A stretch of DNA of 64,000 nucleotides from the NCBI GenBank assembly GCA_963740635.1, contig CAVUEQ010000001.1:273026-337025 (forward strand), given 5' to 3'. Origin of the DNA: an uncultured bacterium (GTDB lineage: Bacteria > Patescibacteriota > Saccharimonadia > UBA4664). The stretch's first letter is position 1; the number at the start of each line of letters is the position of its first letter. The translations under genes were made by a program, and so were the position numbers. Below the pieces are notes generated by a model, which saw only the letters and a list, made by a program, of their open reading frames with translations, was not told the origin of the DNA and ran no database searches. Below, in pieces: positions 13,521 through 35,397 of the stretch.

Positions 13521-13541
13521 CGGGTTTGTGAATTATGGGTA

Positions 13542-13588
13542 TTGACGCGAGGCTTGTTGTGAATTAACATTTAACCAAAGGGTTAAAT
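13542..13588 (+). promoter_or_regulatory. putative arsR promoter and operator
   Basis: TTGACG (13542-47), a 17-nt spacer, then TAACAT (13565-70). The dyad ATTTAACC-AAAG-GGTTAAAT (13569-13588) lies between the -10 and the ATG. TTGTGAATTA is repeated at 13526 and 13557. Confidence 0.45.
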
Positions 13589-13591
13589 GAA

Positions 13592-13957
13592 ATGTATGAA
13601 CAAGCCATACAGCTAAATTCGATATTCGCCTCTCTGGCCGACTCTACGCGCCGAGACATTTTGCGCCGGGTAGCGGATGTTGAGCTGTCGGTGTCCGAGA
13701 TTGCGGCCCCCTACGATTTGTCGCTGGCGGCGGTGTCGAAACATCTGATGATTTTAGAAAAAGCGAAGCTAATAATTAAACGCCGGGTAGGCAAACAACA
13801 GATTGTGAGGGCAGATGGCATGGCATTAATGACTGCTGAGCAGTACCTGCGCAGCTTCGAGAGATTGTGGAACGAGCGGCTCGACGCCTTGGCGCTGCTG
13901 CTGGCGGAAGAACAGCGTAACCAAAAGGAGAAGACCCATGGCAGAGACAACGACTAA
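13592..13957 (+). CDS. ArsR/SmtB-family transcriptional regulator
   Basis: 121 aa. FASLADSTRRDILRRV...SVSEIAAPYDLSLAAVSKHLMILEKAKLI is the winged-HTH pattern. Confidence 0.85.
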   Translation: MYEQAIQLNSIFASLADSTRRDILRRVADVELSVSEIAAPYDLSLAAVSKHLMILEKAKLIIKRRVGKQQIVRADGMALMTAEQYLRSFERLWNERLDALALLLAEEQRNQKEKTHGRDND

Positions 13958-14411
13958 AGAATTGACCTTAACGCGCGTGTTTGACGCGCCGCGCGAGCTG
14001 GTGTGGAAGGCCTGGACCGATGCTGAAATGCTGAAGAAGTGGTGGGGGCCGCATGGCTTCACCAACCCGGTGTGCGAGGTGGACCCGCGCGTGGGCGGCA
14101 AAATCAATATTGAAATGGAAGACTCGGAAGGCCTGATTGCCAAGGGCAGCCGTTACCCCATGACCGGAGAGTTTACGGAGCTGGAGGAGCCGGAGAAAAT
14201 CGTCTACACATCGGCGGCGATCATGAACGACGAAGTGCTGTTCGACAACTTAGTGACCGTGACTTTTGAGGAAGACAACGGCAAGACCAAGCAGACGGTC
14301 CACGTAGTGGTGACCAATATTCGCGACGCCGAAAAGGCCGCCGGTCCGCTCAGCGGCATGGAGATGGGCTGGAGCCAGTCGCTCGAGAAACTGGCCGATA
14401 GCTTAGCTTAA
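13938..14411 (+). CDS. SRPBCC (AHSA1/Aha1-like) domain protein
   Basis: 157 aa. LTLTRVFDAPRELVWKAWTDAEMLKKWWGPHGF is a typical family N-terminus. It overlaps arsR by 20 nt, a common ArsR-SRPBCC operon arrangement. Confidence 0.85.
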   Translation: MAETTTKELTLTRVFDAPRELVWKAWTDAEMLKKWWGPHGFTNPVCEVDPRVGGKINIEMEDSEGLIAKGSRYPMTGEFTELEEPEKIVYTSAAIMNDEVLFDNLVTVTFEEDNGKTKQTVHVVVTNIRDAEKAAGPLSGMEMGWSQSLEKLADSLA

Positions 14412-14429
14412 ATATTAGGAGGAAGTGGT

Positions 14430-14918
14430 ATGCAAAAGATAACGACATTTCTATGGTTCGACGACCAGACCGAAGAGGCCATGAAGTTCTACGTGGAGGT
14501 GTTTAATGGCAGCCCGCGCAAGCGCCTAGAGTCAAAGGTCGTGACGATCAAGCGCTACGAAAAAGGCATGGAGACGCCTGGGATTGACCAGATGGTGGGC
14601 AAGGTGCTGACGGGAGTATTTGAGCTCGACGGGCAGCAATTTATGGCGCTCGACGGCGGCCCGATCTTCAAATTCACCGAGGCAGTGTCATTGCTGGTGG
14701 ATTGCGAGGACCAGGCCGAAATCGATTACTTCTGGGAGCAGTTGTCGGCGGTGCCAGAGAGTGAGCAGTGTGGCTGGTGCAAGGACAAATTTGGCCTGAG
14801 CTGGCAGATAGTGCCCAAGAATATGGACGAGCTGCTGTGGAACAACCAGGCGGTAAACGCGATGCTGAAAATGAAGAAGCTCGATATTGCTGAGCTCGAG
14901 AAAGCAGGGGGCAAATAA
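14430..14918 (+). CDS. VOC-superfamily protein (PhnB / 3-demethylubiquinone methyltransferase-like domain)
   Basis: 162 aa. MQKITTFLWFDDQTEEAMKFYVEVF...FMALDGGP...DYFWEQL...CGWCKDKFGLSWQIVP. An SD (AGGAGG) lies upstream. Confidence 0.8.
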   Translation: MQKITTFLWFDDQTEEAMKFYVEVFNGSPRKRLESKVVTIKRYEKGMETPGIDQMVGKVLTGVFELDGQQFMALDGGPIFKFTEAVSLLVDCEDQAEIDYFWEQLSAVPESEQCGWCKDKFGLSWQIVPKNMDELLWNNQAVNAMLKMKKLDIAELEKAGGK

Positions 14919-15715
14919 TGAAATCTGTAGAATCCAAAGACGGTTCGAAGATAACTTATGAAAATCTGGGCGATGGGCCGCCGGTGATTCTGGTGGACGG
15001 CGCGATGGGTTCGCTGGCCGCTGGTTTTTCGAAGCATATGGCAGAGCTGCTAGCGCCCGACTTTACGGTGATCATGTATGACCGGCGCGGGCGCGGGGAA
15101 AGCACCAATACGCAGCCGTTTGCGGTGGCGCGCGAGATCGAAGACATAGAGGCGCTGATAGATGCGGCCGGCGGCAAGGCCTATGTGTATGGCATATCGT
15201 CGGGGGCGAGTCTGGCCCTGGAAGCGGCGGCCAAATTGGGCTACAAGGTGCCGAAGCTGGCGCTGTACGAAGCGCCTTACGATGAGGCCGACGGGGCCAA
15301 AGAAGCTTGGCATGAATACACCTCTAAGCTGAAAGAGCTGGTCGATAAGGGCGACCGCGCTGGGGCGGCTGAGCTGTTTATGCGGTTTGTGGGCACGCCC
15401 GAGGAGATGATCGCGGGTGTGAAGCAATCCCCGATGTGGCCGGCTTTTGAGGCGGTGGCGCCGACCCTGCCGTACGACGCGGCCGCAATGGGCAAGGATC
15501 GGAAAGTGCCGGTGGACCGCGCCGCCGAGGTGGAGGCGCATACGTTGGTGCTGGACGGCGGCAATAGCGCGCAGTACATGCCGTTTATGCAGGTGTCGGC
15601 CGATAAGCTGGCCGATGCCATGCCGCACGCCGAGCGCCGCACGATTGCCGGCCAGGGCCACGATGTGGATCCGAAGGCACTGGCGCCGGTGCTCAAGGAG
15701 TTCTTTGCTAGCTAA
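14918..15715 (+). CDS. alpha/beta-fold hydrolase
   Basis: 265 aa. The nucleophile elbow is GISSGAS and the C-terminus has GQGHDV (His). The start is coupled to the upstream stop (ATAATG). Confidence 0.8.
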   Translation: MKSVESKDGSKITYENLGDGPPVILVDGAMGSLAAGFSKHMAELLAPDFTVIMYDRRGRGESTNTQPFAVAREIEDIEALIDAAGGKAYVYGISSGASLALEAAAKLGYKVPKLALYEAPYDEADGAKEAWHEYTSKLKELVDKGDRAGAAELFMRFVGTPEEMIAGVKQSPMWPAFEAVAPTLPYDAAAMGKDRKVPVDRAAEVEAHTLVLDGGNSAQYMPFMQVSADKLADAMPHAERRTIAGQGHDVDPKALAPVLKEFFAS

Positions 15716-18182
15716 GTCGCTCGAGCGCGGCCGGCATGTCGATGCCCGGGCCGAGTACGGGCTCCCAGAGATCACCTACTTGCGCTAGGCGGTCTTTGAT
15801 ATTGAGGACCGTGAAGTCGGTAGGCTTGAGGCCCGGTTTGACCTCGTCCCATTTGAGCGGCGTGGACACCGGCATGCCCGGGCGGGGGCGCACCAAATAG
15901 ACTGAGGCTAGCGTTTGGCCGTGGCGGTTTTGGAGGTAGTCTAGGTACACGCGCTGCTGGCGCTTGGAGGGGCTGCGCTCGACGCTGGTGATTTTGGGGA
16001 CCCGGGCATTTACGAGGGTGGCGATGATGTGGGCGAAGTCGCGGACCTGGTCGTAGTTGTATTGGGCGCCCATGGGGATGTAAATGTGCATGCCGGTGGC
16101 GCCGGAGGTTTTGGGATAACTGGGGATGTTCGCGGCGTCGAGGGTTTCGTGGACGGCCTGGGCGGTTTCGATGACGGTGTCGAAGGTGACGTCTTCGGGG
16201 TCAAGGTCGATCACGCACCAATCGGGGTTTTCGAGCGAGCCGATGCGCGAATTCCAGGGGTTGAGGTCGATGCAGCCGAGGTTAATGAGGTACGCCAGGT
16301 CGCGCTCGGAATTGCAGAGCGCAAAGCGGATATCTTTGTTTTCGGAATCGGAATGGATAATCTCGGTGGGCAACCAGTCCGGGGCATGGGTGAGGTCTTT
16401 TTGGTAAAAGCTCTCGCCTTTGATGCCGTTGGGGAAGCGATTTAATGATTCGGGGCGGTCGCGCAGGTAAGGCAGGAGGGTGGGTGCGATCTGCGCGTAG
16501 TAATCGGCCAGTTGGCCCTTGGTGAAGCCGGAATCGTGCCAGAACATTTTGTCGCGGTGGGTCACCAGGTCCTGGTCCGGCGCCGGTTCCAGCTTTTTCT
16601 CGAAAAACTGCTGTTCCCGCTCGCGGCTCACGCCTGCGGCCGGCTTGTCCTCGCGCAGACCCAAAAATACGGGGTGGCGCAGGCGGCCGTCGTCGGTCCA
16701 TTCGGTGAACTGGACTTCGCATAGCAGCTCGGGGCGTACCCAGGTGACCGGTGCGTTGACCTCAATTTTTTCGGCGAATGGCGGATCTTTGGTTACGAGC
16801 GGGTCGAGCCGGGCTTTGAATGCGGCCAGGGTGGCGTCGTCGAAGCCGGTGCCGGTATGACCGATGAATCTGAATTTTTTGCCTTCGTAGAGGCCGAGCA
16901 CCAGCGCGCCAAATTCGGCGCGGGAGCCGCGTGGCTCGGTGTAACCCGCTATGACCGCTTCCTGGCGCAGATGGGTTTTGATTTTGAGCCAGGACTGCCC
17001 GCGCTTACCCGGCTGGTATGTGCTGGCGGCGTCCTTGGCCATGATGCCTTCGAGATTTTGTTGCGCTGCGGCTTTGAAGAAGGCTACGCCTTCGCGCTCG
17101 ATCGAATCGCTGAATTTCACGAACTCCCCCGATTGCGGCAGCAGGTCGCGCAGCAGCTCGCGGCGTTCGGCGAGTGGCAAGCCGGTCGTGTCGTGGCCGT
17201 CGAGCCATAGCAGGTCAAACACGTAGTAAACCAGCCTTCCCTCCCCCGTGCGCTGGTAATTTTGCAGCAGCTCGAACCGCGACCGGCCGTTTTCGTCCAC
17301 TGTCACCATTTCGCCGTCCAGAACCGCCCGGTGGCTCAGGGCCTCCAGTTCCGGGATCACCGGCTTGTAACGCTCGGTGTAATCCTGCTGGTTACGCGAT
17401 CGGAGAGTGATCTTTTTTGGCTCCACGTAAGCAATTATCCGATACCCGTCCCACTTCACCTCATACTGCCAGCCGTCGCGGTCGAAGGGCTCGTCGACTA
17501 GCGTGGCCAGCATGGGCGCAACCTCCTTGGGCATAGCCTTCTTGGGTAAATGATCGACCTCGCTGCTGTGGTCGTGCTCGGCGATTTCGCCCATGGTGCG
17601 GCCGGTTTTGGCCGATTTGTCGAGGTGCGTAATGTCCTGGTCGTTACGCGCCCACTTGTCCTTGCCGGCCTTAATCAGTAGCCAGGCGTTCTCGTCGTCG
17701 GAATGCTTTATCCTGACCAGTGCCCACTCCCCTTTCAGCTTCTGGCCTTTGAGGATGACGGTGATGTGCTCGGCATGAACCATGTGCCGCGCCTCTTTGT
17801 CTTGCTCGTCGCGGGTGAGCTCGAGGGTTTCGCCCGTTTTCTTGTCCCAGGCCACCGGTTCGTAGGTGCCTTCGTCCCAGACCATGACGGTGCCTGCGCC
17901 GTAGTTGTCTTTCGGGATGGTGCCTTCGAAATCCTTGTAATCGTAAGGGTGGTCTTCGGTCATCATGGCGAGGCGCTTGTCTTCGGGGTTCACCGACGGC
18001 CCCTTGGGCACCGCCCAGCTCTTGAGGACGCCGCCCATCTCCAGGCGGAAATCGTAATGCAATTGAGAGGCCTCATGTTTTTGGACGACGAAGCGCAGCG
18101 CCCCTTTGCCGTCGTGCGAACGGCCTTCGGGCTCAGGGGTGGAGTCGAATTTGCGTTTGGCGCCGTATTGATCGAGTGTCAT
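15708..18182 (-). CDS. ligD: multidomain ATP-dependent DNA ligase LigD (3'-phosphoesterase - ligase - polymerase/primase order)
   Basis: 824 aa. The N-terminal PE block is KRKFDSTPEP...FVVQKHEASQLHYDFRLE. The adenylation Lys is in EVKWDGYR. The C-terminal primase-polymerase block reads ...IDLDP...TSGATGMHIY. Confidence 0.9.
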   Translation of the reverse strand: MTLDQYGAKRKFDSTPEPEGRSHDGKGALRFVVQKHEASQLHYDFRLEMGGVLKSWAVPKGPSVNPEDKRLAMMTEDHPYDYKDFEGTIPKDNYGAGTVMVWDEGTYEPVAWDKKTGETLELTRDEQDKEARHMVHAEHITVILKGQKLKGEWALVRIKHSDDENAWLLIKAGKDKWARNDQDITHLDKSAKTGRTMGEIAEHDHSSEVDHLPKKAMPKEVAPMLATLVDEPFDRDGWQYEVKWDGYRIIAYVEPKKITLRSRNQQDYTERYKPVIPELEALSHRAVLDGEMVTVDENGRSRFELLQNYQRTGEGRLVYYVFDLLWLDGHDTTGLPLAERRELLRDLLPQSGEFVKFSDSIEREGVAFFKAAAQQNLEGIMAKDAASTYQPGKRGQSWLKIKTHLRQEAVIAGYTEPRGSRAEFGALVLGLYEGKKFRFIGHTGTGFDDATLAAFKARLDPLVTKDPPFAEKIEVNAPVTWVRPELLCEVQFTEWTDDGRLRHPVFLGLREDKPAAGVSREREQQFFEKKLEPAPDQDLVTHRDKMFWHDSGFTKGQLADYYAQIAPTLLPYLRDRPESLNRFPNGIKGESFYQKDLTHAPDWLPTEIIHSDSENKDIRFALCNSERDLAYLINLGCIDLNPWNSRIGSLENPDWCVIDLDPEDVTFDTVIETAQAVHETLDAANIPSYPKTSGATGMHIYIPMGAQYNYDQVRDFAHIIATLVNARVPKITSVERSPSKRQQRVYLDYLQNRHGQTLASVYLVRPRPGMPVSTPLKWDEVKPGLKPTDFTVLNIKDRLAQVGDLWEPVLGPGIDMPAALERLS

Positions 18183-18208
18183 AACGCCATTGTAGCGGGT
18201 TTAGTGCG

Positions 18209-18440
18209 CTAATCTTCGTAATGATCGGAAACGTTGATTGGCTGAAATTCGCCTCCAATCTCATACCCCAGTATCCGGTAGCGCTGGTTGAGGCGGAAAG
18301 ATCTGATAACCGGCGAAAGGTGCTTGGCCTTTTTTAGAATTTCATAATGTAGGGATGGATGCCGGTTATTGGCCTCAAACAAATCGGACCTGCTTGTCGA
18401 ACGTTTTTGTGAGCTGCAACGCCTGGAGTTTGCCAGCCAT
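18209..18440 (-). pseudogene. RelE/YafQ/YoeB-like toxin gene interrupted by a 1-nt frameshift
   Basis: Both pieces fall below the ORF-track length cutoff. ATG 18440 gives MAGKLQALQLTKTFDKQVRFV* (stop at 18375). An overlapping frame from TTG 18382 gives MFEANNRHPSLHYEILKKAKHLSPVIRSFRLNQRYRILGYEIGGEFQPINVSDHYED* (stop at 18209). The 232-nt span is not a multiple of 3. The fused product follows the ...TKTFxKQ...HPSLH...SFRxxxxYRI...H.. toxin pattern. Confidence 0.4.
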
Positions 18441-18444
18441 TTTC

Positions 18445-18687
18445 TTACTGTGGGGTTTGACTTTCATAAAGTGGGGAATCTGCCAAGCCTTCGACAATAT
18501 CATTTACTAGTTCTTCTGAATAACCTGCGCGGCGGAGCTCGGCTTCGTATTGCTCAAGGGGGGTGATAGATGGTGGAAGGTACACGAACTTGACCTCCTG
18601 GGTTTGTTCGACCTGTAATTCCTCGGACTGGTCTTTGGTCGAGGCGGTTTGCAGGACTTTCTCTGGTGTAGTGGCTGCTTTAGTCAT
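18445..18687 (-). CDS. small acidic hypothetical protein (antitoxin-like position)
   Basis: 80 aa. Its stop lies 4 nt upstream of the toxin-like ATG at 18440. It overlaps the DUF3467 gene by 8 nt. No recognisable domain. Confidence 0.45.
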   Translation of the reverse strand: MTKAATTPEKVLQTASTKDQSEELQVEQTQEVKFVYLPPSITPLEQYEAELRRAGYSEELVNDIVEGLADSPLYESQTPQ

Positions 18688-18946
18688 TGGGGTTGACCTC
18701 GTCAGCTATTTCGACAACTTCCTTTAGCTTTTTTGCGAATTCTTTGGCATGGTTACGGGAAAGGACAATGCGGCTGACCAAGGTTCCTTGCGGTGTGTCA
18801 GCTGGGTGGAAATAAACAAAGTTTAGGACAACTTCGGCAGGTGTCACGTTTATGTTAGCCATGTTGGCATATTTGCCAGCACGCAATATTTCCGGTACGT
18901 GGACCGGGATCTCGGGCGGCGTAGTTTTGGAATTGGATTGTTCCAT
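18680..18946 (-). CDS. DUF3467-like protein
   Basis: 88 aa. YANMANINVTPAEVVLNFVYFHP...LVSRIVLSRNHAKEFAKKLKEVV matches the family pattern I recall (YSNL..I.HSP.EFVLDF......V.SRI.L.P.HAKRL...L). Confidence 0.65.
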   Translation of the reverse strand: MEQSNSKTTPPEIPVHVPEILRAGKYANMANINVTPAEVVLNFVYFHPADTPQGTLVSRIVLSRNHAKEFAKKLKEVVEIADEVNPND

Positions 18947-18992
18947 GAGTAGATTGTATCTTAAGAGAGCTTAAATTTACAGTGATGTATGA

Positions 18993-19766
18993 TCATTTCT
19001 TGGTGGCTTCCAGGCTGGCTTTGAGGGCGGCCATGAGGTCTTTGGTGGCGCCCGATGAGGCGGCGGTGGAAGCTTTGGGCGCCGGCTGGCCCTTCACCTT
19101 GGCCTCAATGGTGGCTTCGAGCTCTTCGGTGTAGGTGTCGTGGAAGTCCTCGGGGATGAACGGTTCGGTGAGCTGGTCGATGAAGGTGAGCGCCATTTTG
19201 AGCTCGGAGTCCTTGATCTCGGAGTTGTCGGGCAGGTTGAGCCCGCCGGGCGAACGAAGGTCGGCCGGGTAGCGCATTTGGTTGAGCACCAGCACCCGGC
19301 CGACGGGTTTGATGACGGCCAAATGCTCGCGTTGCCGGAGCACGAAGCTGCAAACGGCGAGTTTGCCGGATTTGTTAAGCGCCTCGCGCAAGAGCGCGTA
19401 CGGTTTGTCGGCGCCCTTGCTTGGCTCTAAATAATAAGGCCGCTCGAGGTAACGCGCGTCGATTTGGTTTTCTTCGGTGAATTCCTTAATGTCGATAGTG
19501 GTGGTTTTTTTGACGTCGGCTTTTTCGAAATCCTCGTCGGTAATGATCACGAATTCGCCCTTGGCATACTCGAAGCCCTTCACGATTTCCTCGTACGGTA
19601 CCTCGATCCCCTCAACTTTACAGATTTTCGCATAACGGATCGGCGATTGATCCTTCTCGTGTAACATGCGCAGGTCGATCCCCTCCCGGTTTTCCGAGCC
19701 CGAGAAAAGTTTGACGGGAATGTTGATAAGGCCGAATGATATTGCACCGCTCCAAATCGCACGCAT
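18993..19766 (-). CDS. ku: Ku DNA end-binding protein
   Basis: Start re-assigned from TTG 19835 to ATG 19766. MRAIWSGAISFGLINIPVKLFSG is the canonical Ku N-terminus. Confidence 0.9.
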   Translation of the reverse strand: MRAIWSGAISFGLINIPVKLFSGSENREGIDLRMLHEKDQSPIRYAKICKVEGIEVPYEEIVKGFEYAKGEFVIITDEDFEKADVKKTTTIDIKEFTEENQIDARYLERPYYLEPSKGADKPYALLREALNKSGKLAVCSFVLRQREHLAVIKPVGRVLVLNQMRYPADLRSPGGLNLPDNSEIKDSELKMALTFIDQLTEPFIPEDFHDTYTEELEATIEAKVKGQPAPKASTAASSGATKDLMAALKASLEATKK

Positions 19767-19869
19767 AAGAGAATCTCCGGTTCCTGAGCCGATTATATTA
19801 TGCGCAGGCGGTGTCGGCCACTGACGAAACGCCAAGTCTTGTCAGACAGTATATGTATTATCCTCATTT

Positions 19870-19904
19870 TAGCTATCAGCTGATTACTAATCACGTGATA
19901 GCTA
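19870..19904. repeat. 35-bp near-perfect palindrome between GH16 stop and ku
   Basis: TAGCTATCAGCTGATTACTAATCACGTGATAGCTA has 9-bp outer arms plus 6-bp inner arms. It breaks symmetry only at two GC/CG dinucleotides. Confidence 0.55.
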
Positions 19905-19929
19905 ATTGTCGCGTGTGTTTCGAAGCTTC

Positions 19930-20880
19930 CTATTTGTAGATGCGGACGTAATCGACGATGAGGCTGGCCGGGAAGGAAGTGGTGGCGTCGGGGTAGCCGG
20001 GGTCATCGCCGCCGACGGCCAGGTTGAGCAGGAGGTAATACGGGCGGTTGTAGATCCAGCGGGAGCCGAGCGATGATTGGCGGACGGTTTGGTAGGCGGT
20101 GCCGTCGACCGACCAGGTGATGGCCTGGGGCGACCAGTCGACGGCGTAAACGTGGAAACTGCTCGCGGCGCCGGTGCCGGGAAGAAATTGGAGTTCGCGG
20201 GCGATGCCGCCGGCGCCGGTGAAGCCCGGGCCGTGGAGGGTACCCGAAATGATGCCGGGGTCGCGGCCGTTGTTTTCCATGATATCGATTTCGCCGGTGT
20301 CGGAGTCGTCGGCCGGCAGCATCCAGAAGGCCGGCCACAGCCCGTTGCCGGCCGGGGTCTTGAGGCGGGTCTCGATGCGGCCGTATTGGACGGCGAAGAG
20401 GCCCTGGGTCTGGAGGCGGGCCGAGGTGATGTTGCAGGGGCCGAGGGCACAAGGCCCGGGCGGTGAGGCTGGGCGGCGGGCGGTGATCACGAGGTGGCCG
20501 GCGCCGTCCTGGGCTGCGTTGGCGGTACCCGGCAGGTAGTACTCCCACTCGTCGTTGCCCCAGCCCCATCCCCCCGTGTCGGTGTTCCAGCGCGCAGGGT
20601 CAGCGGGCGTGCCGGCCGGGCCGTTAAATTCGTCGGCCCAGATGGGTTGTGGTGGGGTTGGCTGGGGCGCCGGCGCCGGGGTTGGGGTGGACGTGGGCGA
20701 TGTATCGGCTCCGAGCAGTTTGGGCTGGGCCGGCCGGGGTGAGGCCGCCAGCCCTGCAGCAGGCAGGTCTGAAGCTGTCTTGGCGGCCGGCTTGGGCGCG
20801 GGCGTGAGGGCGAATGACACGCCCGCCGCCGTCAGCAGCAGGATGGCGGCGCCTAAATACAATTGCCGGAAATTTCGCAT
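19930..20880 (-). CDS. secreted glycoside hydrolase family 16 (beta-glucanase/laminarinase-like)
   Basis: 316 aa. A signal peptide and Pro/Thr linker are followed by WADEFNG...NDEWEYY...GEIDIMEN (the ExDxxE catalytic motif). Confidence 0.85.
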   Translation of the reverse strand: MRNFRQLYLGAAILLLTAAGVSFALTPAPKPAAKTASDLPAAGLAASPRPAQPKLLGADTSPTSTPTPAPAPQPTPPQPIWADEFNGPAGTPADPARWNTDTGGWGWGNDEWEYYLPGTANAAQDGAGHLVITARRPASPPGPCALGPCNITSARLQTQGLFAVQYGRIETRLKTPAGNGLWPAFWMLPADDSDTGEIDIMENNGRDPGIISGTLHGPGFTGAGGIARELQFLPGTGAASSFHVYAVDWSPQAITWSVDGTAYQTVRQSSLGSRWIYNRPYYLLLNLAVGGDDPGYPDATTSFPASLIVDYVRIYK

Positions 20881-20977
20881 GATTCACCAGGATACTACGT
20901 CTTACCCTGGTCTGGGTAGGTATATTACGCAACTTACGGTATAGTTTGGGCGGATAAACACGGGAGTTAGTGACCGG

Positions 20978-21673
20978 ATGCTAAAGATTCAACGGCTCGA
21001 TTTGTTAGTGGCTCTATATATATTTTGCGTGATGGTGAGCGAACTGATGGGCGCGAAGACCTTCCCCTTGGGGACGGTCTTTGGGTTTAAATTGAACGCC
21101 AGTGTGGCGATTTTGGTGATCCCGCTGATGTTTACGGCGGTGGACGTGGTAGTGGAAGTGCTTGGCCGGCAGCGGGCTCGCAGTCTCGTGACGAGCGGGC
21201 TGATCGTGATTGCACTGCTGCTGCTGTATTCGCTGCTGGCGACGAGCTTGCCGCCGAGCACGCGGTTTGCCCCATCGGAGGCGGCTTACGATAAAATCTT
21301 CGAGACTTCGACGCGGTTTGCGGCCGCCAGTTTGATTGCTTTCGCGGTGTCGGAATTTTTCGACGTGGCGGTGTTTGCGCGCATGAAAGCGGCCATGAAA
21401 GGCCGGGCATTGTGGCTGCGCAACAATTTGGGGAACTTTATGTCCCAGGGTGTCGACACGGCGGTATTTATGACGCTGGCGTTTTACGCGCCGGCGGATT
21501 CTCTGGGGGCGAACGTGGGATTTTTACTCAGTATTTCGGTCCCCTACTATTTGCTGCGGTGTTTGATGTCCGTGGTAGAAACGCCGCTGGTGTACCTGGG
21601 CGTAGCGTGGCTGCGGGGAGAGAAGCCGGCGCGAACGGAGAAGGCCGGTAAATTGGCGGAGAGCGCCGCGTGA
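20978..21673 (+). CDS. yhhQ: YhhQ/VUT-family (queuosine-precursor transporter-like) membrane protein
   Basis: 231 aa and polytopic. Family-like blocks include ...FTAVDVVVEVLG.. and ..LRNNLGNFMSQGVDTAVF... Confidence 0.75.
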   Translation: MLKIQRLDLLVALYIFCVMVSELMGAKTFPLGTVFGFKLNASVAILVIPLMFTAVDVVVEVLGRQRARSLVTSGLIVIALLLLYSLLATSLPPSTRFAPSEAAYDKIFETSTRFAAASLIAFAVSEFFDVAVFARMKAAMKGRALWLRNNLGNFMSQGVDTAVFMTLAFYAPADSLGANVGFLLSISVPYYLLRCLMSVVETPLVYLGVAWLRGEKPARTEKAGKLAESAA

Positions 21674-22335
21674 AGCTGGCGGCCAACTTCGTGATGACCG
21701 TGGACGGCAAGGTCCAGGGTCCGGGCGCGGGGTACTGGCCAATTGGCTCGGAGCGGGATTTGGATCAGCTGCTGAAATTGCGCGCCGGGAGCGACGGGCT
21801 AATCCATGGCCGCATGACGGCGCTGGGACACGACCACATCGGGCGGCTGGGGTCGGCCAAATTCCAGGCGCGGCTGACGGGGCGGCGGTACCAATACGTG
21901 GTTGTGAGCGCGCACCCGGATGAGTTGCTGCTCGGCCACATCGACCCGGCCGGTGCGCCGCTGCGGGTGGTGCTGGCGACCACTGAGGACGCCGAGGTGC
22001 CGGCGGACATGCCTGCAGGCATCGAGCTGTGGCGGCTGGGCAGAGTGGAGGTGGACCTGAAGGCGTTGGCCGAGCGGCTCAAGGCCGAGGGTTGGCGCGC
22101 CGGGGCGCTGGAGGCCGGGCCGCGGCTGTTTGGCGCGTTTGTGGCTGCCGGACTCGTGGACGACTTGTACGTGACCATCGCGCCCAAGCTGTTTGGCACC
22201 TCGCTTGGCACGCCCACCATGATCAACGGCGTGCTGTTTAAGCCCGATGAAGTTCCTCGGCTGGAGCTCGTAAGCTCAAGCGCTCAGGGCGGTGAGGTTT
22301 ACTTGCACTACCGGTTTCCGGAGGCGGCCAAATGA
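21670..22335 (+). CDS. RibD C-terminal / dihydrofolate-reductase-like family reductase
   Basis: 221 aa. MKLAANFVMTVDGKV...LLKLRAGSDGLIHGRMT...EAGPRLFGAFVAAGLVDDLYVTIAPKLFG. It overlaps the upstream gene by 4 nt (GTGA). Confidence 0.7.
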   Translation: MKLAANFVMTVDGKVQGPGAGYWPIGSERDLDQLLKLRAGSDGLIHGRMTALGHDHIGRLGSAKFQARLTGRRYQYVVVSAHPDELLLGHIDPAGAPLRVVLATTEDAEVPADMPAGIELWRLGRVEVDLKALAERLKAEGWRAGALEAGPRLFGAFVAAGLVDDLYVTIAPKLFGTSLGTPTMINGVLFKPDEVPRLELVSSSAQGGEVYLHYRFPEAAK

Positions 22336-23081
22336 AACTGACCGCCATAAAAACCGACTTAATCCACGCTAATGATTTCGACTTGCTGGAATTGGTCGAC
22401 CGGTACGTCCAAGACATGCCCCGGCATTCAGTGCTGGCGATAACGTCCAAGGTAGTGTCGCTGTGCGAGGGCCGGGTGATCAAGATTGGTTCCGAGCCCA
22501 AAGAAGATATTGTGCGGCGCGAGGCGGAATATTATCTGCCGCCGGAATTTAATCCCTATGGCGTGATGGTGACGATCAACCGGGGCGTCATGATCGCCGG
22601 CGCCGGGATCGATGAATCGAACGGCGACGGAAATTACATCCTGTGGCCGAGGGATCCGCAGGCCAGCGCCAACCGGATTCGTGACCATTTGCGGAAACGG
22701 TTTGGACATGAGGTTGGGGTGCTAATTACCGACAGCCGCCTGACCCCGCTGCGCTGGGGAATTATCGGGCTTGGCTTGGCGCATAGCGGGTTTGCGGCGC
22801 TGGAAGACTATGTGGGCCAGATGGACGCGTTTGGGAATTATAAGATGAAGTACTCGTACGGCAGCGTGATAGACGGGTTGGCGGTGGCGGCAGTGTTGGA
22901 AATGGGCGAAGGGGCACAACAGACGCCGCTGGCTTTGATAGAGGATGCCGCTATGGTGCGGTTCCAGGACCGCAACCCCACGGAGGCCGAGCTCGACAAG
23001 CTGCGGATCGAGCCGGGCGAGGATTTGTTCGCCGAAATGCTGAAAAAGATTCCATGGGACAAGCGGCCGGGGAAAGACTAG
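22332..23081 (+). CDS. CofE-like gamma-glutamyl ligase family protein (F420-0:glutamate ligase fold; folate-type ligase suspected)
   Basis: 249 aa. ITSKVVSLCEGRV...AGIDESN...LITDSR..PLR.G..G..LA..G. resembles the CofE/FbiB N-domain. It overlaps the upstream gene by 4 nt (ATGA). Confidence 0.7.
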   Translation: MKLTAIKTDLIHANDFDLLELVDRYVQDMPRHSVLAITSKVVSLCEGRVIKIGSEPKEDIVRREAEYYLPPEFNPYGVMVTINRGVMIAGAGIDESNGDGNYILWPRDPQASANRIRDHLRKRFGHEVGVLITDSRLTPLRWGIIGLGLAHSGFAALEDYVGQMDAFGNYKMKYSYGSVIDGLAVAAVLEMGEGAQQTPLALIEDAAMVRFQDRNPTEAELDKLRIEPGEDLFAEMLKKIPWDKRPGKD

Positions 23082-23962
23082 AAGTCCTCGGATTGGCGCA
23101 GGGCGGCGGCGAGGGCCTGGGCTAGCTTGGGGGCTGACGGTGATTCATCGGGGCCCAGCCCGGCGCCGACCTGGCGGATCAGAAAGGCGGCGGTGGCCAG
23201 GCCCGCGACCGGGTTCGGGCGGTTCTGCAGCCAAAATGTGGTGAGGGCGCCGTAAAACAGGGCGGGTACCTTGCTCAACCGGTAATTTACGGGGGTCATG
23301 ACCAACCCGCCGCCGGCCGCCACGATGATCTCGGTGCCGTATACGGCGTAGGCGCAGGCGCCGGCGGCGGCCACGTCACGCACGATCTCGAGCTTGTTGA
23401 TGAGGCCGCCGCCCGGCCGGATGTTGATGGCCACGCCCAGCGCCCCGGCAAGCTTGAACAGCTCGGCCATGGTGAGGATCACTAGAGCCTTGGAGTTGCC
23501 GGTGACGCTCGCGACATTGTGGCGCAGGCCCGAGAGTCCCTCGTCGAACACGCTCACCGGCCGCTCCACCTCGGCAGCCAGGCGCTCGGCCAGTATGGCG
23601 GTGGCGGAATTGTTGGACAGGCTGGGCCCAATGGCCACCGCATCAGCCTCCTCACTAAGCTCGAGGATGCGCCCGAGCGCCGCGCGGTCGAGCGAGCCGG
23701 AGGCCGTGGCCGCCGCGAAGGCCACGCCGGGTGCGCCTCCTAGGAATTTGGCCAGCACATCCGGCAGCACCACGGTGCACTCCCCCACTCCGGCTGCCAG
23801 CGCGAACTGATGCACGGCCGTGGGCAGGCTGAATTCGCCTTGGTGGCCGCCGACCACCAGCAAGCGCCCGCCGGCCGCCCGCGTGACGGGCCGGTTATAC
23901 AGAACATCCGGGTAGAGCGGCTCGTCCGTTTGGCGCACAAATTGGGGCGTGGCAGGATTCAT
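23078..23962 (-). CDS. YjeF C-terminal (carbohydrate-kinase-fold, NAD(P)HX-dehydratase-like) protein, divergent
   Basis: 294 aa. The layout is LLVVGGHQGEFSLP...AIGPSLS...ILTMAELFKL. The usual GxGDxL block appears degenerate. Confidence 0.5.
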   Translation of the reverse strand: MNPATPQFVRQTDEPLYPDVLYNRPVTRAAGGRLLVVGGHQGEFSLPTAVHQFALAAGVGECTVVLPDVLAKFLGGAPGVAFAAATASGSLDRAALGRILELSEEADAVAIGPSLSNNSATAILAERLAAEVERPVSVFDEGLSGLRHNVASVTGNSKALVILTMAELFKLAGALGVAINIRPGGGLINKLEIVRDVAAAGACAYAVYGTEIIVAAGGGLVMTPVNYRLSKVPALFYGALTTFWLQNRPNPVAGLATAAFLIRQVGAGLGPDESPSAPKLAQALAAALRQSEDF

Positions 23963-24124
23963 AGCTTACAAACATACCATGCCACGGCCGTTTTGGCCTT
24001 TGCTTGGCTAATCCCACGACCGCTGAGCATTGTGATATTTTCCTAATTTAGTAAATATCTCGGACGCATACCTGTTCCGTACCGGCGTAGTATGGCACTG
24101 TTGCAACAAATTAAGGGGGTGCGC

Positions 24125-25300
24125 ATGAAGCATTTAGCATATAAATTAATGGGTGCTGCGACGCTGTCGGCGTTGTGGATCGCGGGGGCTTCGGCCTCGA
24201 GCGGTCACGACATGGCTGGGCCTGGCTATAAAGGCGATATGAAGCCTAGCTACAATCAGGTCAAACAGGACAGCCACCAGTATTCGAACAAGTCCGACAA
24301 CAAGACGTCGTACAAATCCGATAACCGGAACCAGGGCGACTATCAGAAAAACAACAATTACCAGGCCAAAGACAGCTATCAGCCCAAGAACAACTACCAG
24401 CCGGTGAGCCATCAGACCAACTACTCGAAGCCGGCCGACAGTAAGGTTTACAACCAGCGGCAGGACAACAACTACAAGCCGGTGGTTTACCAGCAGAACG
24501 ACAACAAAAAGAATGACTATAACCGTAATGACAACAACAAGAAGGATAATTACAGCAGGAAGAATAACAATTACAGCAACGACAACCGCCTGAACAATAA
24601 TTACGGTAACAAGTACGACAACAACCGGAACGATTTCCGCAAGATAGACTACGGCAACAACAATTACAGCAAAGACAACCGCAGCTACGACAACAACCGG
24701 TACAACAGTCACAACAATAACCGCAACGATTACGACAACAATCGTAACTACAACAAGTACAACAACCGGGACTACGATCGCAACTACAAGTCAGACGAGC
24801 ACTACCGGCCGGTTGTGTATTTCAGCAAGAACAATAACTACAAGCGCTACGACATGGACCGGTACGACCGAAACAAGCACTACCGGAACAACGAGCGAGA
24901 TTACGTGAGGTACGCCAGCTACAAGAGCTACGACAACTACAATAACTATAAACACCACAAAAACTACAACCAGTACAGCAACAGCCGTCACTATGATAAC
25001 AACCGGTATAGCCGTACCTACAAAACGGTCAGCTACCGGTCAAACAACTGTGACCGCCAGATTAACGTTCATCGAGTTAGTTACAACAAGCACAACGTGC
25101 GCTATGGGTCGTACAACATGAACCGAAGTTACCCGAGGGTCTATCTGGCGAGTTACCGGATGGGCACACACCAGGCTAACTACCGCAACGACTGCCAGCG
25201 GTCCTACCAGCGCCATCTGTGTGACTACAACCGCTGTGACAACAACCGCGTGAGCTACCACAACTACTCGGCCTGCCACTCAAACAGTTACTGCGCCTAA
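24125..25300 (+). CDS. secreted, extremely Asn/Tyr-rich low-complexity protein with Cys-rich C-terminus
   Basis: ATG 24125 lies 5 nt after AAGGGGG (24113-24119). The signal peptide is MKHLAYKLMGAATLSALWIAGASA|SS. About 365 aa follow, dominated by N, Y, D, R and K, with no hydrophobic core. The last ~90 aa carry about 7 Cys. A strong terminator lies 33 nt after the stop. Confidence 0.7.
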   Translation: MKHLAYKLMGAATLSALWIAGASASSGHDMAGPGYKGDMKPSYNQVKQDSHQYSNKSDNKTSYKSDNRNQGDYQKNNNYQAKDSYQPKNNYQPVSHQTNYSKPADSKVYNQRQDNNYKPVVYQQNDNKKNDYNRNDNNKKDNYSRKNNNYSNDNRLNNNYGNKYDNNRNDFRKIDYGNNNYSKDNRSYDNNRYNSHNNNRNDYDNNRNYNKYNNRDYDRNYKSDEHYRPVVYFSKNNNYKRYDMDRYDRNKHYRNNERDYVRYASYKSYDNYNNYKHHKNYNQYSNSRHYDNNRYSRTYKTVSYRSNNCDRQINVHRVSYNKHNVRYGSYNMNRSYPRVYLASYRMGTHQANYRNDCQRSYQRHLCDYNRCDNNRVSYHNYSACHSNSYCA

Positions 25301-25332
25301 AAAGTATCCAAAAATTAGATCATAACCGCGAG

Positions 25333-25358
25333 ACGGCCTGGAAAGGGGCCGTTTTTTT
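25333..25358 (+). terminator. intrinsic terminator
   Basis: ACGGCC-tggaaagg-GGCCGT stem followed by a run of seven T. Confidence 0.75.
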
Positions 25359-25370
25359 GTGCCCGGGTTT

Positions 25371-26210
25371 TTAGGCCAGCCGGGTGCGGTGGGCGGTTTG
25401 GCTGTCGCGGGACTTGGCCAGGAAGGATTCGTAGGCCGCCACCTCACTGATGCGGTCGTTCATGAGGCGCCAGGCAAGGCGCTGGCCAGTGGCGGTGAGA
25501 AACTGTTCCGGGCCGATCGAGGCGGCGACGTTTTGGATATAATCCGAGGGTTCCACTCCTTTGCGAGTTATGTCGAGCCAGAAGCTCTCATGGGTGTAGG
25601 GCCACATGCGGTCGGCTTCGCAGGCAATGATGAGCTCGCTGGGGGTGCGACCGGACTGGTAGCCGGAGGGGCGTTCGTGGTAGAGCGCGACATCACTGAT
25701 GAGCTTGATTTCGGCTTCGGTGAGGGGTTTCTTGAATTCGTAGCCGCGCAGAATTTCGGCTGCCAGCCGGCCGCCGTGCTCGGCGTGGAGGCGCTTGGCC
25801 TTGGCGGCTTGGCGGGTAAACCGGACGCCGGCGTAGTCCAGGCTGTCGGCGATTTGCGCTGGGCTGACCTGGCTCCAGCCGCAGTCATGCAGGATGACGG
25901 CCAGGGTGGTGAGGCGGAGGTCGGCTGTGGAGTCGATGGCGGCCTGGAGCTCGGGTACAAAGCTGACCGACACCGCGGTGTGAACGCTGGTGGTGCGTGG
26001 CGTCAGGTACGGCAAAGCATACTTAAAGAAATCGTGGTAGGCACCGGGAACGTGCTTGAGGTACGAACTATTCCAGGGGATATGAGTGAGTAGATGCAAT
26101 CGCTCGCGCTCTACGTGGAGCGTGGCGGGAACGGCTATGGAGATTGTTGTCGGTAGGAATTCGTCGGCGCCGTCAGGCAGGGAGACATTCCGGAAACTCA
26201 GCGATGTCAT
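25371..26210 (-). CDS. HD-domain-like metal-dependent phosphohydrolase (putative)
   Basis: 279 aa. H..(ILHDCGW)..H..D spacing suggests an HD domain. The call is weak without an HMM. Confidence 0.45.
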   Translation of the reverse strand: MTSLSFRNVSLPDGADEFLPTTISIAVPATLHVERERLHLLTHIPWNSSYLKHVPGAYHDFFKYALPYLTPRTTSVHTAVSVSFVPELQAAIDSTADLRLTTLAVILHDCGWSQVSPAQIADSLDYAGVRFTRQAAKAKRLHAEHGGRLAAEILRGYEFKKPLTEAEIKLISDVALYHERPSGYQSGRTPSELIIACEADRMWPYTHESFWLDITRKGVEPSDYIQNVAASIGPEQFLTATGQRLAWRLMNDRISEVAAYESFLAKSRDSQTAHRTRLA

Positions 26211-26253
26211 ACGGCATTAAGTATACACCAAAAAGCTTACGCCGGCGGGCTGA

Positions 26254-28032
26254 TTACCAGCCGCCGCCACCTCCGCCGCCGCCACCACCGCCGGCGGATC
26301 CGCCCGCGCCGGAGCTGGACGGCGGCGTGAAGCTGGCACTCGAGGCTTGAGAAAAGCCGGCCAGCGATCCGGCGAAATAGCCGGCATTGAACGAGGACGT
26401 GCCGGAATACCAGCCGGGTGGCTGTTGGTAAAGCTGGGCAAATTCTTTGGCCCAATCCTTTTCGATACCAAAGAGCATGGCGTAGGGCAGCAGGCGCTCA
26501 TACAGTTTGACCAGTTGCCCCTTATCGGCGGTGTCGATTTTTTCGGTGAGGCTGCCGTGAGGGCTTTGCATTACCTTAATGCGGTCCGCTTCGGCTAGCC
26601 GCATGTAATCGCGCAGACCGAGCAAATAATCGTGCAGCCCGACGCCTTTGGCGGTGCGGGCGGGCATGAATTTGGCTGAGATGAACAAAATGACGGCGGG
26701 CGGCAGGAAGGCGAAGCCGGCCTGCGGCACGAAGACCCCGAGAGTGATTTGGTAAAGCAAAAAGCCGGCCGCTAGGGCTGCGAGGCCGATGAGGAGAAAT
26801 GGGATTGCGGCGGTGGTGGGGTCGGTGCGGAAGTAACCGCCGGCGGTGAGGGCTAGGGCTTGGGATTTGTTGAGGGAGGCGGCGCCGACGTAAAGTTTGT
26901 TTTTGAGGCTGTCGAGCTTGATGCGGCTGCCGGGTTCATTGAAGGCCCCAAAGACCAGGTTTATTACGGCTTGCTCGTCGTTGCGCAGGTCCGCCGGGTC
27001 GCGGGTGAGTTCGAGCTCGTAGGATGTAACGTCAGCGAGGATGACGCGGCGCTTGGTCTCGTAGATTTTGATGTACCCCCGCACGGCCAGGTCGATAATT
27101 TGGGCGGTGATGGCTTTGGGCTCGAGCTTTTCGCGGAGTGTGACGCCGGCGCCGAGGACGCTGACTTCCTTGGGCGGTACGTATTCGGGGATAATGACGC
27201 CCCGGCCGGACGGGTCGCGGCCATACCGGCGCCAGTAAATCACCGCCACAATGAGCGTGATGATGGTAGGCAAGGCCAGAGCGGCCGCTATTGCCGCCAT
27301 CCCCCAGATTTGGGCGGTGGTGAGGTGGTAGGCAGCGAACGTCCCGGGCGCGAAGCGCAGCTCGTAGGTGAGGGTTTCGCCGGTTTCGAGGGGGCGTGTG
27401 GCGGTGAAGGTGGCGAGCGCACTGCCGCCGGTTTCCGGCTCGATGGCAGCGGTGCAGGCTTGGGTGGTGGAACCAGGCTGGCCGGTAAAGCAGCGGCTGC
27501 CGTCGGGTTGGCCGGCGGCGGCCAGGTCGTTGGTGAGGTGGACCCGGGCTGTAACCTGGCCGAATTGCTGCTGCCACTGGTCGCCGTTGACGTCCCAGAA
27601 ATGGCCGTCGTATCCGGAATTGTTAACGGTGACGTTGTCTTGGGTGTAGTCAATGTTGTACACCTGCCGGCCGTGAACGTAGCGCGAGGCATCGCCAATA
27701 CGCAGGACGAGGTTGGAGTTGGAATTGCTGCGCGAGTAATGCAGGGCCTGTCCGGAGTCGTTGGTAACACTTTGGACTCGGAGGTCCACGGTATGGCCCT
27801 GGTAGCGATCGGGGATGGCTCGCAGAATGCCGTGGTTTTGGTCGAAATCCGGGAAGTTGGCCACAATGTGCTCGTGGACGCGCAGGTGGGAGATATGATC
27901 GGTGTCGCGGCTGAGGTAATAATCGGCCTCAAATTGCGGGATGGTGAAGTCCTGGACACCGGCGGCGGCGCCCAACGGGGCGAGAGCCGGGGCGGCTAAG
28001 ACGAGGGCAAGGATAATGCGAAGTTTGCGCAT
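26254..28032 (-). CDS. DUF2207-family membrane protein
   Basis: 592 aa. It has a signal peptide, FTIPQFEADYYL...ILRAIP, mid-protein TM helices and the family-typical C-terminal poly-Gly tail ending GGGGGGGGGW. Confidence 0.85.
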   Translation of the reverse strand: MRKLRIILALVLAAPALAPLGAAAGVQDFTIPQFEADYYLSRDTDHISHLRVHEHIVANFPDFDQNHGILRAIPDRYQGHTVDLRVQSVTNDSGQALHYSRSNSNSNLVLRIGDASRYVHGRQVYNIDYTQDNVTVNNSGYDGHFWDVNGDQWQQQFGQVTARVHLTNDLAAAGQPDGSRCFTGQPGSTTQACTAAIEPETGGSALATFTATRPLETGETLTYELRFAPGTFAAYHLTTAQIWGMAAIAAALALPTIITLIVAVIYWRRYGRDPSGRGVIIPEYVPPKEVSVLGAGVTLREKLEPKAITAQIIDLAVRGYIKIYETKRRVILADVTSYELELTRDPADLRNDEQAVINLVFGAFNEPGSRIKLDSLKNKLYVGAASLNKSQALALTAGGYFRTDPTTAAIPFLLIGLAALAAGFLLYQITLGVFVPQAGFAFLPPAVILFISAKFMPARTAKGVGLHDYLLGLRDYMRLAEADRIKVMQSPHGSLTEKIDTADKGQLVKLYERLLPYAMLFGIEKDWAKEFAQLYQQPPGWYSGTSSFNAGYFAGSLAGFSQASSASFTPPSSSGAGGSAGGGGGGGGGGGW

Positions 28033-35007: not shown

Positions 35008-35397
35008 ATGTTAAAGGATTTTAAATCATTTTTGTTGCGCGGGAACGTGGTTGACCTGGCGGTGGCGGTGGTGATCGGGGCGGCCTTTGGGGCGGTGGTG
35101 ACGTCGATGGTGAAAGACTTAATCACGCCGCTAATTGGGGCGATTGGCGGGACGCCGGACTTCAGCGGGCTGTATGTCACCATCAACCATAGCCGGATAA
35201 TGTACGGATCATTTTTGAATGCGCTGATTGCCTTCGTGGTGATAGCAGGCGTAGTGTTTTTCTTTGTGGTGAAGCCAATAAATGTGCTTCTCACCCGCTT
35301 ACAGAGCGGCAAAGAGGCTGAGCCTACACCGAAAGATCCTCAGATTGAGCTGCTGGAGGAAATTCGGGACGCTCTGAAGTCTCAGAACCGGGGCTAG
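35008..35397 (+). CDS. mscL: large-conductance mechanosensitive channel
   Basis: 129 aa. MLKDFKSFLLRGNVVDLAVAVVIGAAFGAVVTSMVKDLITPLIG is near-canonical MscL. Confidence 0.95.
   Translation: MLKDFKSFLLRGNVVDLAVAVVIGAAFGAVVTSMVKDLITPLIGAIGGTPDFSGLYVTINHSRIMYGSFLNALIAFVVIAGVVFFFVVKPINVLLTRLQSGKEAEPTPKDPQIELLEEIRDALKSQNRG

Follow-up and report, generated by a model that had tools for sequence, protein, structure and literature searches.

What could a bacterium use an exported protein for that is rich in tyrosine and asparagine and has essentially no hydrophobic core? The question is raised by an open reading frame (ORF) at 24092..25300 on the plus strand of a 64,000-nucleotide stretch of contig CAVUEQ010000001.1, from an uncultured member of the Saccharimonadia (assembly GCA_963740635.1). 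The whole of this stretch is referred to below as the window. The ORF is present there as listed, and translation from the ATG at 24125 gives a product of 391 aa, the Tyr-rich protein. The reading we favor, to which we give a probability of roughly 0.45, is that this is an exported, disordered "sticker" protein that would serve as an adhesive or cohesive surface or matrix material.

The reading frame and its product

The Tyr-rich ORF is a real gene under selection, and its open frame is no chance event. In 5000 mononucleotide shuffles, the frame was interrupted every time (17 stops on average), and the other five frames of the ORF contain 5–54 stops. The frame is also fragile, as 134 of the 391 codons are one substitution away from a stop, and stop-creating changes make up 5.6% of all point mutations here versus 2.2–3.1% in four neighboring genes. 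The original prediction had argued for selection from this same fragility, and the shuffles, the native GC content at third codon positions (GC3), and the retained Shine-Dalgarno (SD) sequence and signal peptide bear it out. It had also placed the local GC at about 40%. A drop below the window mean is indeed seen, but not to that figure: GC is 0.489 in the ORF, 0.474 in a 1-kb interval, and 0.593 in the whole window. By codon position the ORF has a GC of 0.39, 0.30, and 0.77, with the last value within the 0.72–0.84 range of 11 neighboring genes. The ratios AAC:AAT (66:14) and TAC:TAT (45:12) likewise follow the neighbors, which prefer AAC (74%) and TAC (76%). The low GC of the ORF therefore stems from its amino acid content, acting at codon positions 1 and 2, and the gene looks native. 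Import from an AT-rich donor was rejected on the basis of GC3 and these synonymous choices, in keeping with the earlier view that the composition is set at the protein level. Val-rich ORFs on the minus strand (24146-24712 and others) are AAC and TAC mirrored as GTT and GTA. They were rejected as well, since SD, start, and signal peptide are kept in the plus-strand frame, which is the one that relatives retain.

The mature chain of 367 aa is composed of 21.8% Asn, 15.3% Tyr, 9.5% Ser, 9.5% Arg, 9.3% Asp, and 8.2% Lys, with 4.1% His, 2.5% Gly, 2.2% Pro, 1.4% Met, 0.8% Leu, 0.5% Ile, and 0.5% Glu. Only 26 residues are I, L, V, F, M, or W, and ILFMW together amount to 3.3%. The net charge is +29, and the isoelectric point is 9.6. 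These values agree with the original prediction of about 365 residues, of which roughly a quarter would be Asn and one in seven Tyr, with abundant Asp, Arg, and Lys and essentially no hydrophobic core. Degenerate units of the form x(2-9)-Y make up the body of the chain (KNNNY, DNNRY, and GNNNY are examples), with Tyr-Tyr spacings mostly of 3–10 residues, and TRF detects only short degenerate arrays with a period of 9–21. The islands YKPVVY and YRPVVY, said to recur, are both present, but each occurs once only (residues 117 and 227), and a further island, YQPV, is found at residue 91. The C-terminal module reads TVSY..NNCDR..VHRVSY..PRVY..NDCQRSY..LCDYNRCDNNR..SYCA. About seven Cys had been expected within the last 90 or so residues. 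The location in the tail holds while the count is six, at residues 309, 357, 366, 371, 384, and 390, all within the last 83 residues.

The N-terminus of the protein is MKHLAYKLMGAATLSALWIAGASA|SSGHD, where the bar marks the predicted cleavage. By inspection, the n-region carries two Lys (K2 and K7), the h-region LMGAATLSALWIAGA spans 15 residues with a mean Kyte-Doolittle hydropathy of 1.57, and A-x-A (A-S-A) occupies positions −3/−1, as the clean ASA|SS site predicted earlier implies. These features point to a Sec-type secreted product that would be a substrate of signal peptidase I. AlphaFold models a helix over residues 2-22 with a pLDDT of 70–78.

A narrow family and its syntenic slot

Pfam and NCBIfam returned no match even at E up to 10, PHROGs returned none up to E 0.1, and the PDB, searched with the family profile, returned none up to E 1. 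With all four negative and no known repeat-protein family surfacing, the statement that no characterized family resembles the protein stands. No curated family, solved structure, or paper that we found covers it; the kind of protein, that is, a secreted, Tyr-rich, low-complexity structural or adhesive one, is already known elsewhere. A search of the literature on Saccharibacteria with tyrosine-rich or disordered secreted proteins gave nothing relevant, the one match dealing with a host protein, AesB.

Seven relatives were found, in metagenomes and one metagenome-assembled genome (MAG), for a family of about eight members. Source samples are JGI 3300056797 and 3300055389, the one with the Ga0170475 contigs, and ENA ERZ27296282 and ERZ926158. 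A word-indexed search of 5.8 billion clusters returned a single relative, P0001 (319 aa; E 2.5e-5), which matches the window protein with a pairwise E of 4e-19. It stems from a MAG labeled Candidatus Saccharimonadia bacterium (GCA_038245115.1), and no other member comes from a named genome. With a two-sequence profile, HMMER was run exhaustively against 1.84 billion representatives and gave only six matches, four of them real: P0001, P0002 (242 aa), P0004 (112 aa), and P0006 (175 aa). The other two, P0003 and P0005, were rejected as unrelated tandem-repeat proteins without a signal peptide or the Tyr pattern. A five-member profile search of 90%-identity clusters returned P0001 and P0004 only, and a metagenome scan with low-complexity patterns confirmed no relative. 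Looking up the exact sequence of the window protein, with either start, and that of its neighbor gave no match. Finally, a DNA pattern made from the invariant signal-peptide codons matched 26 metagenome loci, of which 24 were spurious and two real (L013 and L027); it had 0 matches in viral contigs. The family set thus assembled holds the window protein, P0001, P0002, P0006, P0004 plus the ORF downstream of it, L013, and L027.

The last two, both from JGI metagenome contigs, have a composition similar to that of the window protein. L013 has 421 aa with 17.7% Asn, 17.0% Tyr, and 8 Cys, and L027 has 376 aa with 20% Asn, 19% Tyr, and 6 Cys. Both show a GC3 of ∼0.8 and clear tandem repeats of QPKxVEY and (Q)KDNNRY(E), and their tail ...RCDYNR...NYC(A/V) corresponds to ...LCDYNRCDNNR...SYCA of the window protein. 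Their contigs (1295 and 1161 bp) stop almost exactly at the borders of the gene, which lies on the reverse strand, and both proteins are absent from the results of the exhaustive protein search. A repeat-rich gene that breaks assemblies may leave the family under-represented in assembled protein catalogs. As it stands, the family appears narrow and unannotated, with members placed so far only in Saccharimonadia-type genomes.

The Tyr-rich gene adjoins a gene for a distant yjeF_C-like protein, resembling NAD(P)H-hydrate dehydratase, in the window and in five relative loci (L001, L003, and L005–L007). The assignment rests on weak matches to TIGR00196 (E 9e-4) and PDB 2ax3 (E 2e-3), and the 294-aa protein is 70% identical to its counterpart in L001, 78% in L003 (over 100 aa), and 57% in L005. 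The pair is divergent in the window, L003, and L005–L007. In L001, the Saccharimonadia MAG (10001-11965), it is convergent, with the Tyr-rich gene on the other side of the yjeF_C-like gene, and the adjacency has thus outlasted a rearrangement that simple inversion does not explain. A functional link between the two genes was considered and is unsupported, given that the neighbor looks housekeeping and that the Tyr-rich gene has changed sides in L001. The yjeF_C-like gene marks a syntenic slot. Together with the synteny to metagenomic contigs, the 70% identity of this neighbor to its counterpart in the one named Saccharimonadia MAG points to a Saccharimonadia-type organism as the source of the window.

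What is kept in the family, and what is not, can be read from the alignment. The signal peptide is the most conserved part, with the signature M-[KGR]-x-[LI]-x-Y-K-[LVF]-x-G-A-x4-A-x-W-x3-A-x-A, and Y6, K7, G10, A11, A16, W18, A22, A24, and G27 are invariant in seven members. A Tyr content of 9–19% and an ILFMW content of 1–6% are conserved as well. Y-x-P-V occurs in six of the seven members, as YKPVV, YRPVVY, and YHPVVY in P0001, YRPVVY in P0002, YQPVNY in L013, YQPVYY in L027, and four times in the fused L005 protein. In every member the Cys residues of the mature chain lie in the C-terminal 10–50%, often as (N/D)-C-(D/G)-(R/H/Y). The C-terminal module of the window protein aligns with PRVHY(V/A)SY...NNCD(T/R)SCYQNRCDYNR...NYC(A/V) of L013 and L027 (45% identity) and with TVSY..C..VHRVSY of P0001. 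The window protein itself shows the signature, the Tyr-rich and ILFMW-poor body, Y-x-P-V, the C-terminal Cys, and the yjeF_C-like neighbor. On the other hand, Asn (4–22%), His (1–13%), Gln, Val, and Ala content, length (175–439 aa), and Cys number (3–15) all vary. Since Asn spans so wide a range, Asn richness is a lineage trait and not a family trait, and its extreme form is specific to the lineage of the window protein, L013, and L027. The family rule is a tyrosine-punctuated, polar, core-less chain.

A further small feature follows the cleavage site. G-H, or GPVH, stands directly after it family-wide, and the Gly-His pair is kept just after the predicted cleavage in the window (24197-24211), P0001, P0002, P0006, and the L005 protein. 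In the SSGH of the window protein, His is out of register with position 3 unless cleavage occurs one residue further on.

The Tyr-rich proteins diverge far more than their surroundings. Between the window and L005, which are syntenic, identities are 93% for MreB, 56% for a PEGA protein, 60% for a sortase, 70% for a helicase, and 84% for MscL, so that flanking proteins stand at 56–93% versus ∼25–45% for the Tyr-rich proteins; the window protein agrees with L013 and with L027 in 42–44% of the aligned columns. For L013 versus L027, the closest pair, the Nei-Gojobori ratio of nonsynonymous to synonymous substitution (dN/dS) is ∼0.36 overall, ∼0.44 in the body and in the tail, and 0.08 over residues 1-55, figures that are rough because dS is near saturation and the low-complexity alignment is uncertain. 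They indicate purifying but relaxed selection, and the family appears to evolve fast through repeat turnover and compositional drift.

The expectation that relatives keep a similar ORF is borne out in L013 and L027, which are open and Asn/Tyr-rich, and fails in L005–L007. In the latter, a −1 frameshift near L005 8237 divides the ortholog (L005 8001-9319, L006 7586-8904, L007 6180-7498) into a signal peptide with ∼79 aa and a 349-aa Tyr/His/Val-rich ORF in the −1 frame. The junction, KYEAP|EQNYEHK, has no homopolymer or obvious slippery sequence, the same break is present in six contigs from at least three ENA samples, and the downstream frame is open for ∼360 codons. The split ortholog could be a recent pseudogene, a product of an internal start without export, or a case of recoding. 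With six contigs carrying the break, the gene is dispensable or variable in this lineage. One could go on to suppose that the whole family is decaying or functionless, a low-complexity ORF expanded by replication slippage and tolerated rather than used. The very small family, its fast evolution, the frameshifted ortholog, and the repeat arrays of L013 and L027 are what such decay would leave. Nevertheless, frames of 376–421 codons remain open in three Asn/Tyr-rich versions despite their share of stop-creating mutations, no segment has a dN/dS as high as 1, with the lowest value in the signal-peptide region, and SD, start codon, signal peptide, and C-terminal motifs are kept with native codon usage. 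We therefore consider a functionless ORF highly improbable.

Predicted disorder and possible functions

The mature chain is predicted to be intrinsically disordered. In the Uversky charge-hydropathy plot, all seven mature chains lie clearly beyond the boundary toward disorder, the window protein having a mean hydropathy of 0.26 where the boundary is at 0.44. AlphaFold2 gives a mean pLDDT of 38.5 and a pTM of 0.18, with only the signal helix modeled and residues 42-391 almost all below 50 without secondary structure, although, with an alignment of five sequences, a low pLDDT by itself says little about disorder.

In the reading we favor, the protein would leave by the Sec route and remain an unfolded chain at the cell or in its surroundings, where it would lend stickiness or cohesion to the surface or matrix through multivalent binding. 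The contacts, made by Tyr together with Arg and Lys, would be weak but numerous (pi-pi, cation-pi, and hydrogen bonds) and would involve either glycan-rich surfaces or further copies of the protein, and the Cys tail could provide disulfide-linked multimerization or tethering. The arrangement resembles the sticker-and-spacer design of FUS-family domains in its Tyr every 3–10 residues, its abundant Arg and Lys, its polar disordered chain, and the conservation of composition over sequence. FUS-family domains, however, are intracellular and eukaryotic with Gly/Ser/Gln spacers, whereas the Tyr-rich protein is bacterial and exported, with Asn/Asp/Lys/Arg-rich spacers and a Cys tail. Cultivated Saccharimonadia live attached to host bacteria, which makes a role in attachment or as a coat the most plausible use.

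The closest likeness in composition is to the proteins of the mussel foot. Mussel adhesive proteins are enriched in Tyr and poor in Leu, Ile, Met, and Glu, and Dbfp7 and Mfp3 are also enriched in Asn (PMC12993968). The Tyr-rich protein is likewise poor in those four residues. Like Mfp-3, Mfp-5, Dbfp7, and other wet adhesives of invertebrates, it would be secreted, of small to medium size, unstructured, cationic, Tyr-rich, polymorphic, and fast-varying, and in composition and predicted disorder it agrees with the published description of such adhesives, by analogy and not by homology. The differences are as clear. The mussel adhesives are eukaryotic, show no homology in sequence, and are rich in Gly and Pro (only 2.5% and 2.2% here), their Tyr is usually converted enzymatically to 3,4-dihydroxyphenylalanine (DOPA) while no tyrosinase is seen in the window, and the mature chain is much longer than Mfp-3 or Dbfp7. 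A bolder proposal, which we regard as unlikely at present, is that a clade of the ultra-small Saccharimonadia evolved its own mussel-glue-like Tyr sticker polymer for attachment to the host wall or as a coat of the epibiont. Compositional turnover, repeat expansion, and the occasional frameshift would then be the marks of an arms race with various hosts or of adaptation to them.

A related possibility is that the chain is covalently cross-linked through dityrosine or DOPA-type bonds together with disulfides into an insoluble protective layer, comparable to spore coats or to the quinone-tanned proteins known from invertebrates. It overlaps the sticker reading and differs only in needing enzymatic covalent chemistry. 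A Tyr content of 15%, the confinement of Cys to the tail, and the fact that Tyr density is the best-conserved compositional trait would suit such a layer. There is also a bacterial precedent, as the Tyr-rich CotC and CotU build high-mass forms in spore coats, where dityrosine, disulfide, and isopeptide links occur (PMC7944565). Bacillus subtilis CotC, CotU, and CotG resemble the Tyr-rich protein in being bacterial, of low complexity, rich in Tyr, Lys, and Asp, and, as proposed for the Tyr-rich protein, destined for an extracellular proteinaceous layer. Cys-mediated links, which the tail of the Tyr-rich protein could also form, are known in coat and crust proteins. Coat proteins, though, lack a signal peptide and are laid down by the mother cell as the spore forms. 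CotC and CotU fall far short of the length seen here, and sporulation is not known in Saccharimonadia. Indeed, no coat-protein family was matched, the protein has no homology to coat proteins, and the annotated window ORFs include no sporulation genes. No tyrosinase, multicopper oxidase, peroxidase, transglutaminase, or Dsb is seen among the ∼40 ORFs scanned in the window, which covers 64 kb of the genome, nor among the annotated genes of L001 and L005, and neither a CotH-type kinase nor SodA is seen in the window. An enzymatically cross-linked coat is thus improbable.

The original prediction had raised a prion-like or amyloid matrix, in which GNNNY and KNNNY units would stack into cross-beta fibrils. 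Asn and Tyr together account for 37% of the mature residues, and short Asn runs closed by Tyr are reminiscent of GNNQQNY, the zipper peptide of Sup35. Yeast Q/N-rich prion-like domains and curli CsgA likewise combine high Asn with interspersed Tyr, and curli are also extracellular. Scored on an approximate scale of prion propensity, a handful of 41-residue segments come to about +0.15, the best value, although the mean is −0.12. The chain, however, is 28% charged, with the charges spread evenly throughout and no uncharged stretch exceeding 16 residues. It has neither the Q/N tract of a prion-like domain, roughly 40–60 aa or longer and nearly devoid of charge and Pro, nor a Curlin repeat. Pfam gave no match to Curlin or another amyloid family, the window annotation shows no csg-like neighbors, and AlphaFold models no beta structure. 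Moreover, Asn is at 4–10% in orthologs of unchanged architecture, so that Asn zippers cannot be the conserved function. The amyloid idea fits poorly, and we consider it very unlikely.

Extracellular binding or buffering of metals was weighed as well, with Tyr, His, Asp, and Cys, the motifs D-C-D-H and N-C-D-R, and the G-H pair as potential ligands. In the ATCUN motif, which binds Cu and Ni, His is the third residue of the mature chain, and this is where it would be in P0001 (ASA|SGH) and P0002 (ASA|AGH). The usual neighbors of Cys are Asp, Asn, His, or Arg, and the fused L005 ortholog contains 13% His. In the window protein, however, His amounts to just 4.1%, and, with cleavage after A-x-A, the pair misses the ATCUN register there as well as in P0006 and the L005 protein. 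The gene has no conserved neighbor for a metal transporter or metallochaperone, the CorA gene of the window (47016-47942) being 22 kb away, and no known metal-binding family was matched. With hints that differ from member to member, a role in metal binding is scarcely probable.

Several observations weigh against the sticker reading itself, in addition to the shallow alignment behind the structure model. The frameshift indicates that one lineage, at least, can do without the protein. The number of Cys, 3–15 overall, is odd in two members (3 each), and with counts this variable a fixed disulfide pattern is unlikely. No Cys occurs before residue 309 and there is no lipobox, which speaks against a bacterial lipoprotein, and LPXTG and a C-terminal hydrophobic or transmembrane segment are absent (the chain ends in ...SACHSNSYCA), which speaks against anchoring by sortase. 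A sortase gene is present in the window (5372-6508), as is another in L005. With no anchoring signal in the protein, cell attachment is only assumed, and so is an epibiotic lifestyle for this particular lineage.

Gene boundaries, other genes, and meaning of the family

The ORF opens at 24092, the start given originally, but the gene most likely begins at ATG 24125. Alignment of the upstream regions lines up TAAGGGGG-N5-ATG in four loci (window, L003, L005, and L001), with the consensus TAAGG(G/A)GG-N5-(A/G)TG, and GGGGGAAAT/GGGGAAAT stand ahead of the ATG in L013 and L027. ATG 24092 sits within a TAnnAT element and has no ATG counterpart in L005 or L001. It is because SD-N5-start is kept across loci and ATG 24092 is not that the later start is preferred. 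The predicted SD, AAGGGGG, was found at 24113-24119. The T-A-n-n-A-T positions are invariant in the same four loci; a generic sigma-70 scan found no full promoter, and the element is a putative one. At the other end, the hairpin (∼25331-25353) and the seven-T run (25352-25358) correspond to the intrinsic terminator predicted after the stop and probably act as one. The minimum free energy of the hairpin is −16.8 kcal/mol in a 71-nt context, the fold z-score of that stretch is unremarkable, and a generic terminator scan did not list the element. The convergent HD-domain gene ends at 25371. An Rfam search of 23000-26500 gave no match. The coordinates are collected in Table 1.

Table 1. Position of the Tyr-rich gene, its parts, and adjoining elements in the window
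Feature	Coordinates	Strand	Remarks
yjeF_C / NAD(P)H-hydrate-dehydratase-like gene (distant), 294 aa	23078..23962	-	conserved neighbor, divergent to the Tyr-rich gene
-10-like TAnnAT element, TAGTAT	24088..24093	+	∼30 nt 5' of the start codon; putative promoter
Shine-Dalgarno TAAGGGGG	24112..24119	+	5 nt ahead of ATG 24125
Signal peptide, 24 aa, MKHLAYKLMGAATLSALWIAGASA	24125..24196	+	predicted cleavage ASA|SS
Tyr-punctuated polar low-complexity body, residues 25-295	24197..25009	+	rich in N, Y, D, R, K, S
YKPVVY island, residues 117-122	24473..24490	+	
YRPVVY island, residues 227-232	24803..24820	+	aligned with YHPVVY of P0001
C-terminal conserved module, residues 296-391	25010..25297	+	holds all 6 Cys
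Stop codon TAA	25298..25300	+	
Terminator-like hairpin (GACGGCC...GGCCGT), then seven T	25331..25358	+	between the Tyr-rich gene and the convergent HD-domain gene

Elsewhere in the window, ∼17 kb of genes between the sortase and the yjeF_C-like gene (6500-23000) differ from L005, which has an ABC transporter and MscS at the same place. The segment encodes a phosphoenolpyruvate-synthase/PPDK-like enzyme (9910-12273), a trypsin-like peptidase (12312-13520), the nonhomologous end-joining pair LigD (15708-18182) and Ku (18993-19835), a secreted GH16 protein (19930-20880), a Vut_1 transporter, RibD_C, and an F420-ligase-like gene. GC falls to 0.50–0.53 at 7–10 kb and 18–19 kb of the window. Beyond the Tyr-rich gene, a DUF2207 membrane protein (26254-28032, minus strand) ends in eleven Gly and then Trp (...SAGGGGGGGGGGGW). 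A protein matching MATCAP/DUF1704 (50435-51739, minus strand; tyrosine-carboxypeptidase-like, E 1e-9) and a nearby ATP-grasp protein similar to L-amino-acid ligases (52763-54097, plus strand) may be a peptide-modifying pair. The 519-aa protein at 58415-59974 (plus strand), with an N-terminal hydrophobic segment and a C-terminal CBM_5_12 domain (chitin/carbohydrate-binding), is a further candidate for a surface or host-wall-binding protein. A fused trehalose-6-phosphate synthase/phosphatase (48181-50373, minus strand; Glyco_transf_20 and Trehalose_PPase), G6PD (42348-43976), and an AcrB-family transporter (35324-38575) form a fairly rich repertoire for a genome that is syntenic with Saccharimonadia-type contigs.

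How epibionts of the Patescibacteria, or candidate phyla radiation (CPR), attach to their hosts and build their surfaces is poorly understood, and their surface proteins are mostly unannotated orphans. The family provides a concrete candidate for studies of attachment and coats, which can be recognized by a diagnostic signal peptide, a syntenic slot, motifs, and a compositional rule. It also illustrates, in a natural bacterial setting, how extracellular disordered proteins may conserve composition while diverging in sequence. Should the adhesive reading be true, the family would be of interest for biomaterials research, and if the bolder proposal of a mussel-glue-like polymer were correct, it would be a bacterial case of convergence on the wet adhesives that eukaryotes build from Tyr and would add a new class to the host-attachment factors of Patescibacteria.

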